Shown here piece by piece: positions 61,616-64,000 of a stretch of DNA of 64,000 nt. How positions within the stretch are numbered: position 1 is the stretch's first letter; the number at the start of each line of letters is the position of its first letter. The notes below the pieces were generated by a model. The model ran no database searches and had not been told where the DNA came from. It was given only the letters and a program-made list of their open reading frames with translations. The stretch is from Eledone cirrhosa (lineage: Eukaryota). Made by a program: the position numbers and the translations under genes. The DNA lies in contig OZ024743.1 in the NCBI GenBank assembly GCA_964016885.1, positions 226,114,001 to 226,178,000 on the forward strand, given 5' to 3'.

Positions 61616-62694
61616 ACGACTGCTGCGGCCTATGTACACGACGCCGGTCTGTGTTTTTGCTGTTGTTGTAGTTGCTGCTGTTGTTGTTGTTGTAACTGTT
61701 TACTGTGGTTGTTGCTTTCGTTGTTGTTGTTAGTAGGGTAGTAATATCACTACGACTGATGCGGCCAGTGTGGACGATATTGGTCGGTGTTTTGCTGTTA
61801 TTGTCGTTGTTGTTGTTGTCATCATTGTTGTTGTTGATGTTGTTGTCTTAAGGTAGTTATCAACAAAATATATAATCCGCCCTCCCTCAGAGCTCCATTT
61901 ATTGCTTCCACTGGCTAAAAACAGTTTTTTTCGGTTTTTTTTCGTAGTTAGCCTTTTCTAGCAAACACGACGGCTGGCAAACCCTTCAAGGAACTCATAT
62001 GTGTGCTGGGTACACAAGCAATAGGACATGTGGGTTTGCCTGCCAGCGACATATCAAACATATCGGGTATCATCTGAGGATACCGTTCTCATAACAACAG
62101 CAAATGCATAAAGGACATCTCGATTGCATGGAGAACCGTGGAAATAATTATAATAATTAAACGATATATGTACACCTCTGTATCTTATTTTGTTATTTTT
62201 ATAAAATTCTCCATCGTACCTAAAAACTACGATTGTTGAGAGAGCTTTCTCTTGATTACTCCTGTTTTTACCAAATCAATCTCTTCTGAACACAATATAT
62301 ATATATATATATATATATATATATATATATATATATATATATATATATATATATATATATATATAAATATATATATATATATATATATATATATATATAT
62401 ATATATATATATATATATATATATATATATATATATATATATATGAAAGACGTAAAATAAGAAAATTTTAAAAAATTAAAAATTAACTTACTTACTCTTA
62501 ATACCACCCCACTCCCAACTGACTAACCTCAGTGTCACGTGATTGATTCTTTAGAATACACCACTGACCAGAGGCAGTGAACTTTTTCAGTGCTATGGAA
62601 TTTAGTCCCCGCTAGCTTATTACATCCACTGAATTATTATTTTTATATGAGTTCCTAGTGTCCGCGCATTGCCTGGGAACTTAGCTGAGGATAG

Positions 62695-62776
62695 ACTCCC
62701 TGATGACGTAATGAATTCTCGATAGTTACATTGTGCAACTATATTTATCCCATTACAGAAACTAATTAGTTGGAGT
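62695..62776 (+). ncRNA. Hammerhead ribozyme, family G
   Basis: ACTCC CTGATGA cGTAATG...CATTACa GAAA CTAATTAG TT GGAGT; GUU triplet. Confidence 0.8.
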
Positions 62777-63224
62777 GAAAATTTTAGTAAGTTAATTTTA
62801 AATTTTTTTAAATTTTCTTATTTTACGTCTTTCATATAATTGTTCTGCATCCCCCTGCATTGAACCACCTAGGTACTTTGACATAACTTATATATTTACT
62901 AGTATTAGTGTACATCTGTACACATATGTTGGTAGATGTATTAATTCTATATATTTATCTCCAAATTATTTGTTGAGCAAATTGCAAAATCTACTGCTAA
63001 TTCATAGTAGTAGTAGTAGGCTTTGTCATAATACCACCCCACTCCTAACTGACTAACCTCAGTGTCACGTGATTGATTCTTTAGAATACACCACTAACCA
63101 GAGGCAGTGAACTTTTTCAGTGCTATGGAATTTAGTCCCCGCTAGCTTATTACATCCACTGAATTATTATTTTTATATGAGTTCCTAGTGTCCGCGCATT
63201 GCCTGGGAACTTAGCTGAGAATAG

Positions 63225-63306
63225 ACTCCCTGATGACGTAATGAATTCTCGATAGTTACATTGTGTAACTATATTTATCCCATTACAGAAACTAATTAGT
63301 TGGAGT
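63225..63306 (+). ncRNA. Hammerhead ribozyme, family G
   Basis: Second tandem copy, core intact. Confidence 0.8.
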
Positions 63307-63767
63307 GAAAATTTTAGTAAGTAAGTTAATTTTTAATTTTTTAAAAATTTTTCTTATTTTACGTCTTTCATATAATTGTTCTGCATCCCCCTGCATTGAA
63401 CCACCTAGGTACTATGACATAACTTATGTATTTGCTAGCATTAATGTACATCTGTACTCATATGTTGTTAGATATACTAATTCTCTATATTTATCTCCAA
63501 ATTATTTATTTGTTGAGAAAACCTGCCAAATCCACTACTAATTCATTGGTGTGGTAGTAGGCTTTTGTCATCTTACCAACCCACTCCTTCCGACTAGCCT
63601 CAGTGTCACGTGACTGATTCTTTAGAATCTACCATTTGACCAGAGACAGCGAACTTTTTCAGTGCATGGAATTTAGTCCCCGCTAGCTGTTCCATTCACC
63701 GAATTATTATTATTTTTATATGAGTCCCTAGTGTCCGCGCATTGCCTGGAGACTTAGCTGAGAATAG

Positions 63768-63849
63768 ACTCCCTGATGACGTAATGAATTCTCGATGGTT
63801 ACATTACGTAACTATCTTTATCCCATTACAGAAACTAATTAGTTGGAGT
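63768..63849 (+). ncRNA. Hammerhead ribozyme, family G
   Basis: Third, more diverged unit with core, stem I and stem III unchanged. Confidence 0.8.
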
Positions 63850-64000
63850 GAAAATTTTAGTAAGTAAGTTAATTTTTAATTTTTTTTTAAATTTTCTTAT
63901 TTTACGTCTTTCATATATATATATATATATTTATTTATTTATTTATATAAAAGTAAGAGCGAGAATATATATATATATATATACACCAGTTCAGTAAAAT

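Follow-up and report, generated by a model that had tools for sequence, protein, structure and literature searches.

The three tandem hammerhead motifs near the right end of the window, the whole 64,000-nt stretch of Eledone cirrhosa contig OZ024743.1 that we analysed, lie in one insertion of a dispersed repeat of ~540 nt with ~12,000 ribozyme-bearing copies. This high-copy, non-coding repeat, here called family G, is likely a type I hammerhead non-LTR retrozyme mobilised by a Penelope-like element (PLE), with cleavage and circles predicted. A previous sequence-only reading of the locus had suggested a retrozyme with a Penelope-type insertion, and the family-wide data back this view. It had also suggested spacers drifting within an array under selection, which has to be given up, as the differences are fixed markers of two dispersed subfamilies.

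The window locus and its dispersed family

The features of the insertion are collected in Table 1. The type I motifs are found in tandem where they had been reported, and the periods of 530 and 543 nt follow from the core and cut positions. The description as three ribozyme units holds for the motifs, while of unit 1 only the 3' 340 nt are present. The three units agree exactly in stem I (5 bp), the core, the proximal stem II (6 bp) and stem III, in agreement with the earlier claim for stem I, core and stem III. The stem II hairpin was said to vary while staying paired. Its proximal part is identical, and the distal hairpin of unit 1 contains a mismatch, with a folding energy of -17.4 kcal/mol vs -22.9 and -24.6 kcal/mol in the others. 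The inverted end is present, with 54 nt at 96% identity (62443-62496) instead of the 52 nt given before. Both flanks are (TA)n, as described, and a target-site duplication was sought there. The one-sided tail is absent from this locus, though present family-wide. No ORF of at least 90 aa is present in any frame of 62443-63914, and Rfam returned no family at gathering score anywhere in the window.

Table 1. Anatomy of the family G insertion (window coordinates).
Feature	Position	Strand	Remarks
(TA)n target microsatellite, left flank	62295..62442	.	
Inverted copy of last 54 nt of unit (5' inversion arm)	62443..62496	-	96% to unit 2; stops at the unit-end site
Unit 1, 5'-truncated, subfamily A	62496..62835	+	unit positions 188-533
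Hammerhead 1 with pseudoknot arm	62687..62776	+	one G.U in pseudoknot, one distal-hairpin mismatch; CTGATGA core at 62700; predicted cut after GTT at 62771
Unit 2, full length, subfamily A	62839..63371	+	
Hammerhead 2	63217..63306	+	palindromic stem III; predicted cut after GTT at 63301
Hammerhead 2, pseudoknot arm	63217-63222		
Hammerhead 2, stem I	63225-63229/63302-63306		
Hammerhead 2, core	63230-63236		CTGATGA core at 63230
Hammerhead 2, pseudoknot partner	63245-63250		in stem II internal loop
A-to-B switch interval	63274..63413	+	no reliable subfamily markers; includes predicted cut site and unit junction
Unit 3, full length, subfamily B	63375..63914	+	its end forms the insertion's 3' terminus
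Hammerhead 3 with pseudoknot arm	63760..63849	+	CTGATGA core at 63773; predicted cut after GTT at 63844
(TA)n, right flank	63915..63929	.	no array continuation past the window

An exact 19-mer over stem III and the cut site occurs in 12,089 copies genome-wide (3.0 Gb), and a subfamily-specific exact 19-mer in 718, each with 0 matches for the reversed control. With 0 or 1 genome-wide match for all reversed patterns, the motif is not a chance occurrence. From 191 fetched loci we obtained 167 insertions, and the 147 full units fall into six multi-locus clusters with identities down to ~72%. The sampled loci (167 + 40) represent only ~2% of the family. They were selected by similarity or by exact words in or adjoining the ribozyme, and clusters 5 and 6 initially came to light next to other matches. 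Units are 519-571 nt long and non-coding with a GC content of 33-35%, and tandem arrays reach six full units. The gap between the counts of 2,279, 1,061 and 718 arises because further subfamilies carry other stem II sequences. A pile-up of ends at the cut site was rejected as its source, since 29 of 30 loci continue upstream. A metagenome scan gave three chance 19-mer matches without the rest of the motif, and the sequencing-run listing gave three runs of one study with about half of the query words and no RNA run. At L155 (1476-4711) and L177/L178, arrays of at least six near-identical units (0-2% apart) are candidate source loci for transcription. At L086-L089 (C1 111.938-111.946 Mb) the same insertion and its flanks are found twice, 5.3 kb apart, as a local segmental duplication.

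According to the sequence-only reading, a local duplication was followed by drift of the spacers, with the ribozymes kept by selection at the locus. The proposed alignment of units does reveal a contrast between units 2 and 3, with 57 differences in 396 columns upstream, 4/82 in the ribozyme and 4/65 in the tail (Fisher p=0.017), the four ribozyme differences all falling within or beside the distal stem II hairpin. Units 1 and 2 show no such contrast (3/193 vs 1/82 in the ribozyme). The first 39 unit columns are also identical between units 2 and 3, and conservation therefore extends beyond the ribozyme, to which it had been thought to be limited. Units 1 and 2 are members of subfamily A, unit 3 of subfamily B. 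Unit 2 matches copies on other contigs at 98-99% identity and unit 3 matches other dispersed copies at 97-98%, while the two match each other at only 89%. The differences between them separate subfamilies A and B elsewhere, so the supposed drift is subfamily divergence. Private substitutions, moreover, strike ribozyme and spacer about equally. The subfamily assignment already refutes local duplication and drift, which we consider very improbable.

Insertions of mixed subfamilies are uncommon, with 4 flagged among the 128 loci that have two classed pieces. The window locus is the clearest; two of the others are thin-margin cases between close clusters, and one mixes across an inversion. It is doubly exceptional in combining the A-A-B mix with two arms that end at the same site, and this coincidence at one locus points to a join of two insertions. 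We slightly favour that the left part of an A insertion became linked to the right part of a B insertion, whether through recombination/deletion or through an assembly mis-join. Template switching within one insertion, that is, reverse transcription of two templates, we place just short of an even chance. The T/A tract in the tail of unit 2 measures 21 nt as in B, yet is two single-base steps away from the A-type inverted arm. On the left, the insertion is flanked by a different repeat whose natural end is at (TA)n, so that flank continuity carries no information on a join. This flanking family (61300-62292) is of high copy number, with 1,916 first-look candidates, and ends at (TA)n or (CA)n. 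Apart from its rare chimeric status, the window locus is not special.

Fold and conservation of the ribozyme

The CUGANGA, GAAA and NUH core elements with three helices define a type I hammerhead, and such a motif is found in every tandem unit. Among the six consensuses, 22 of the 23 columns that make up the core, stem III and the flanking C and A do not vary, compared with 248 of 413 columns upstream (p=2.5e-4). Conservation figures at the ribozyme are biased upward because loci were picked by words in or near it. The comparison of two subfamilies alone is not significant (5/82 vs 50/461, p=0.24). Singleton substitutions amount to 0.73-0.79 per 100 sites in the core and stems I-II and to 0.83 upstream, with stem III as the exception at 0.18 (2/1,098). 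These nearly equal rates inside and outside the ribozyme imply that inserted copies decay about evenly. On this comparative evidence, selection on the ribozyme is real but operates between source lineages.

Three of the six stem II pairs have changed on both sides, 99.2% of cells are paired, and the stem is present as six different fully paired hexamer pairs. For the whole structure, 26 double changes are observed among 21 sequences, vs 5.7 after shuffling, a control that ignores relatedness, and 1-4 after sliding. Further conserved blocks, of 18 nt and 11 nt, lie at the end and the start of the unit, respectively. Subfamily E (L172 and relatives) has another distal stem II hairpin sequence, closed by a C(UUCG)G tetraloop. 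At 63317-63326 and equivalent positions, a 4-nt AGTA repeat following the ribozyme has undergone repeated gain or loss, both in every subfamily and inside individual loci. This repeat overlaps a conserved splice-donor-like GTAAGT, as after other long-stem hammerheads in this genome. The palindromic CACGTG followed by TTGATTC at 63064-63079 and equivalents is invariant or nearly so in six subfamilies and may be an internal promoter element.

A pseudoknot of 5-6 bp was missed by the earlier reader. GAGAAU, located 2 nt upstream of stem I, is complementary to AUUCUC in the internal loop of stem II. Of 257 distinct contexts, 215 allow a Watson-Crick run of at least 5; when the opposite side of the loop is taken as partner, only 13 do. 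Among the first 100 of 1,026 degenerate-pattern matches, counted by hand, the third pair is G-C in 49/53 and A-U in 20/21 (p=8e-14). In the same 100, 26 represent a lineage in shifted register, whose one fetched copy pairs over 6 bp, and one sublineage breaks the second pair (6/53). The 21-sequence alignment holds no double change in the pseudoknot helix. From these alignments the pseudoknot covaries, with one or two lineage events behind it and not many. Other hammerheads have been shown to depend on such stem I-II pseudoknots for rapid cleavage (PMC3088659).

The cleavage triplet is GUU in 12,089 copies, vs GUA or GUC in 81. GUU is cleaved more slowly than GUC or GUA. GUU counts among the active NUH sites (PMC3138052). 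With a C behind A9 and an A ahead of G12, 230 of 233 copies have a C.A pair at the base of stem II. The canonical junction, with 10.1-11.1 pairing directly between A9 and G12, is thus not formed, and the next pair is an invariant G-C. A U.U at this position is tolerated in the axolotl HHR_Amex2 (PMC7229834), and published descriptions of PLE hammerheads give low activity, a long helix II, an additional base after A9 and an invariant G10.1-C11.1 (PMC4209133). Residue U17 extends stem III to a 12-nt palindrome, for which cofolding predicts -13.0 kcal/mol between two molecules vs -0.5 kcal/mol within one. Such a palindrome would fit dimer-dependent cleavage, by analogy with axolotl retrozymes (PMC7229834). 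Circular monomers fold better than their shuffles, with z of -4.7 and -6.9 for two and -3.0 to -4.8 for four others; five control stretches in the same test gave z of -2.4 to +0.8.

Insertion ends and the copied template

Of 252 unit starts, 251 come after a unit end, as do all 54 in 40 further loci chosen by position. The unit is therefore closed on itself, with nothing else attached upstream. No ORF is joined to any unit in the 167 + 40 loci (~2% of the family), neither was unit-like sequence detected among ORF fragments in the fetched loci, and the RT plus GIY-YIG ORF of an autonomous PLE was not found in family G. The free 3' ends concentrate at two sites (244 of 264), 128 at the unit end and 116 at unit positions ~105-140, and nearly all of them run into (TA)n or (CT)n(TA)n. 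The second 3' end (near unit position 112; e.g. L009, L020 and L140) often has an expanded (CT)n before (TA)n, suggesting slippage at initiation.

Both orientations are present in 97 of 165 complete loci. These inverted insertions comprise 78 with one arm at each site, 1 end/end, 1 tail/tail and 17 other arrangements, and with both ends typed, one arm lies at each site in 78 of 80 (p=5e-21). The single end/end case is the window locus. A second set follows the rule in 18 of 22 insertions, and the remaining four on inspection have one untyped end. Partial tandems, an inverted 5'-truncated arm, a tail at one end and microsatellite targets, the marks of PLE-made insertions, are found family-wide. 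At the window locus, the inverted ends and TA flanks would also suit insertion at TA of a MITE-like DNA transposon whose terminal inverted repeats measure ~54 nt. In the family, the length of the inverted arm varies from copy to copy, which already refutes such a transposon. Moreover, 68 of 165 complete loci have a single orientation only, the two outer ends are usually unlike, and every unit finishes with the presumed terminal repeat. A fixed pair of terminal inverted repeats at the two ends is absent, and we regard this origin as extremely improbable.

In 13 of 17 loci the units of one insertion have private substitutions in common, compared with 5.8% of control pairs, and 269 of 270 joins that span the cut site are free of indels. 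It follows that a single template lineage, in the form of a circle or of an uncut multimer, was read through the ribozyme. Counted by hand, around 28 5' ends fall within 15 nt past the cut site and 8 within 15 nt ahead of it (p=0.001), with only 4-5 of 255 exactly at the site. This step is suggestive of cleavage only, and stalling of the reverse transcriptase at the fold or at the AT palindrome would match it as well.

Relation to known elements and origin of the copies

By its sequence, family G would be classed as an animal non-LTR retrozyme. It shares with this group non-coding low-GC tandem units that each carry a type I hammerhead (PMC7229834; bioRxiv 10.64898/2026.07.22.740005), and likewise a short palindromic helix III, thousands of copies, a self-paired monomer and PLEs in the same genome. 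The unit length lies above the 150-450 bp of PMC7229834 and inside the 51-972 bp of bioRxiv 10.64898/2026.07.22.740005. In contrast to the retrozymes described there, family G has a stem II arm of 51 nt whose internal loop pairs with the flank of stem I, a fixed GUU, and mostly dispersed insertions of one or two ribozymes with inversions; it is known here from sequence alone. Animal non-LTR retrozymes were recently argued to be non-autonomous PLE derivatives (bioRxiv 10.64898/2026.07.22.740005). With endonuclease-bearing PLEs, family G has in common the partial tandems, the inverted 5'-truncated arm, the one-end tail and the (TA)n targets (PMC8557442; PMC4209133), and with the hammerheads of PLE pLTRs the long helix II, short helix I, base after A9 and invariant G-C at the helix II base (PMC4209133). 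In contrast to PLEs it has no RT-EN ORF and a tail of ~112 nt, vs 30-40 bp in PLEs (PMC8557442), and its extra A before G12 was not found described in the available text of PMC4209133. No sequence common to family G and the PLE families seen in this genome was observed.

The closest parallel for the 3' ends is PAc (Poseidon of Anolis), a purified PLE protein with two-site internal initiation (PMC11167929). The two systems share two fixed 3' ends downstream of a hammerhead, AT-rich targets and the use of both strands, and by analogy the two-site ends of family G match the initiation pattern of PAc. The family G sites are ~110 nt apart at AT/CT-rich, target-like sequence, whereas PAc starts without homology (PMC11167929); family G is also a non-autonomous RNA, with one site per arm in nearly all typed inverted insertions. 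The Watson-Crick pseudoknot between stem I and II regions resembles those of pseudoknot-stabilised hammerheads (PMC3088659), with the difference that the pairing partner is an internal loop, located 7 pairs up stem II, and that the motif is of type I and repetitive in an animal genome. In the literature searched, we found no account of a pseudoknotted retrozyme with GUU.

The genome contains intact PLE ORFs at 96-99% identity that were recently active. At 5255-7027 (+), the window holds the 3' 590 aa of an intact 758-aa RT plus GIY-YIG frame with CxCX5C, DKT and RWR motifs, which by the criteria of Craig et al. (PMC8557442) is classed from its sequence motifs as Hydra-type. Its family has 74 scored copies at 91-100% identity, and full copies have a hammerhead with long stem III directly before the frame. 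As the partner of family G it is not favoured, its hammerhead being unrelated with no sequence link in 20 loci, and for this reason we do not name the mobiliser. Pfam searches of eight window frames gave only weak GIY-YIG and zf-RVT matches. Thirteen further type I hammerhead motifs of several other families are found in the window (3879-, 9957+, 14506+, 18343-, 18462+, 30832-, 31164+, 37157+, 37643-, 41416+, 45842-, 49153+ and 54662-), and ~15 motif types recur in the fetched loci, many with T.T at the stem II base. Direct repeats at 58186-58975 and 55899-56693, with periods of ~546-556 nt and 316 nt, are unlike family G.

Two other origins of the copies share most of the evidence with the retrozyme reading. 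The copies could be ordinary 5'-truncated terminal repeats (pLTRs) of an unfound autonomous PLE; every insertion mark is PLE-like (PMC8557442), and the ribozyme carries the PLE-type long helix II, short helix I and base after A9 (PMC4209133). Unit starts that follow unit ends almost without exception, arrays of up to six full units, and the lack of a joined ORF in the ~2% of the family that was sampled speak against this, and we hold it to be improbable. A more substantial possibility, below even odds in our judgement, retains the same family and a PLE mobiliser but replaces the circle by an uncut read-through multimer transcribed from homogeneous tandem source loci. The hammerhead fold would then be maintained for protein binding, or as a switch that works slowly or with the help of a protein. 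The fixed GUU and the C.A pair agree with such a template, as does U17, which lengthens the stem III palindrome and could pair with A14. PAc copies unprocessed RNA (PMC11167929), few 5' ends lie at the cut site, and seamless joins with locus-private sharing fit equally. Arguing against it are the covarying pseudoknot between loop I and loop II, a contact type that speeds cleavage in tested hammerheads (PMC3088659), the excess of 5' ends after the cut site, although stalling would give the same step, and the strong self-pairing of the monomer.

For the retrozyme reading we propose that tandem loci would be transcribed, that the ribozyme would cut slowly or as a dimer via the 12-nt palindrome over stem III, and that monomers would be ligated to circles. 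We lean modestly towards this cutting and ligation over the uncut multimer as template. A PLE would supply the RT and endonuclease, and its protein would nick both strands of a (TA)n microsatellite. Reverse transcription would start internally, for each strand at its own site, ~70 or ~180 nt downstream of the cut site, and read through the ribozyme, yielding partial tandems and the inverted arm. Against the retrozyme reading stand the fixed GUU and C.A pair and the lack, in the loci fetched, of an autonomous element with sequence common to the unit. Furthermore, the PLE studied in vitro used uncut RNA and needed no ribozyme activity (PMC11167929), and eight of nine Xenopus retrozyme dimers did not cleave (bioRxiv 10.64898/2026.07.22.740005). 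We put forward one tentative extension. The ribozyme may be tuned slow by GUU, palindrome and C.A, yet held active-shaped by the pseudoknot, cutting only as a dimer or when bound by Penelope protein, and insertions may record one RNA circle primed at two internal sites, one per DNA strand.

PLE mobilisation of animal retrozymes has so far been argued from co-occurrence and phylogeny in the available text of bioRxiv 10.64898/2026.07.22.740005 and PMC7229834, and family G adds evidence at the level of junctions. The near-strict rule of one arm per site provides a sharp, testable model of PLE tail and inversion formation that is usable in the published in vitro system. The ribozyme itself is a natural variant, with GUU, a C.A junction and an internal-loop pseudoknot, that Rfam missed and that can be assayed with short transcripts. 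If the reading of a slow ribozyme primed at two sites is true, family G would be the first direct genomic footprint of a Penelope enzyme copying a retrozyme and building its tandem-plus-inverted structure.
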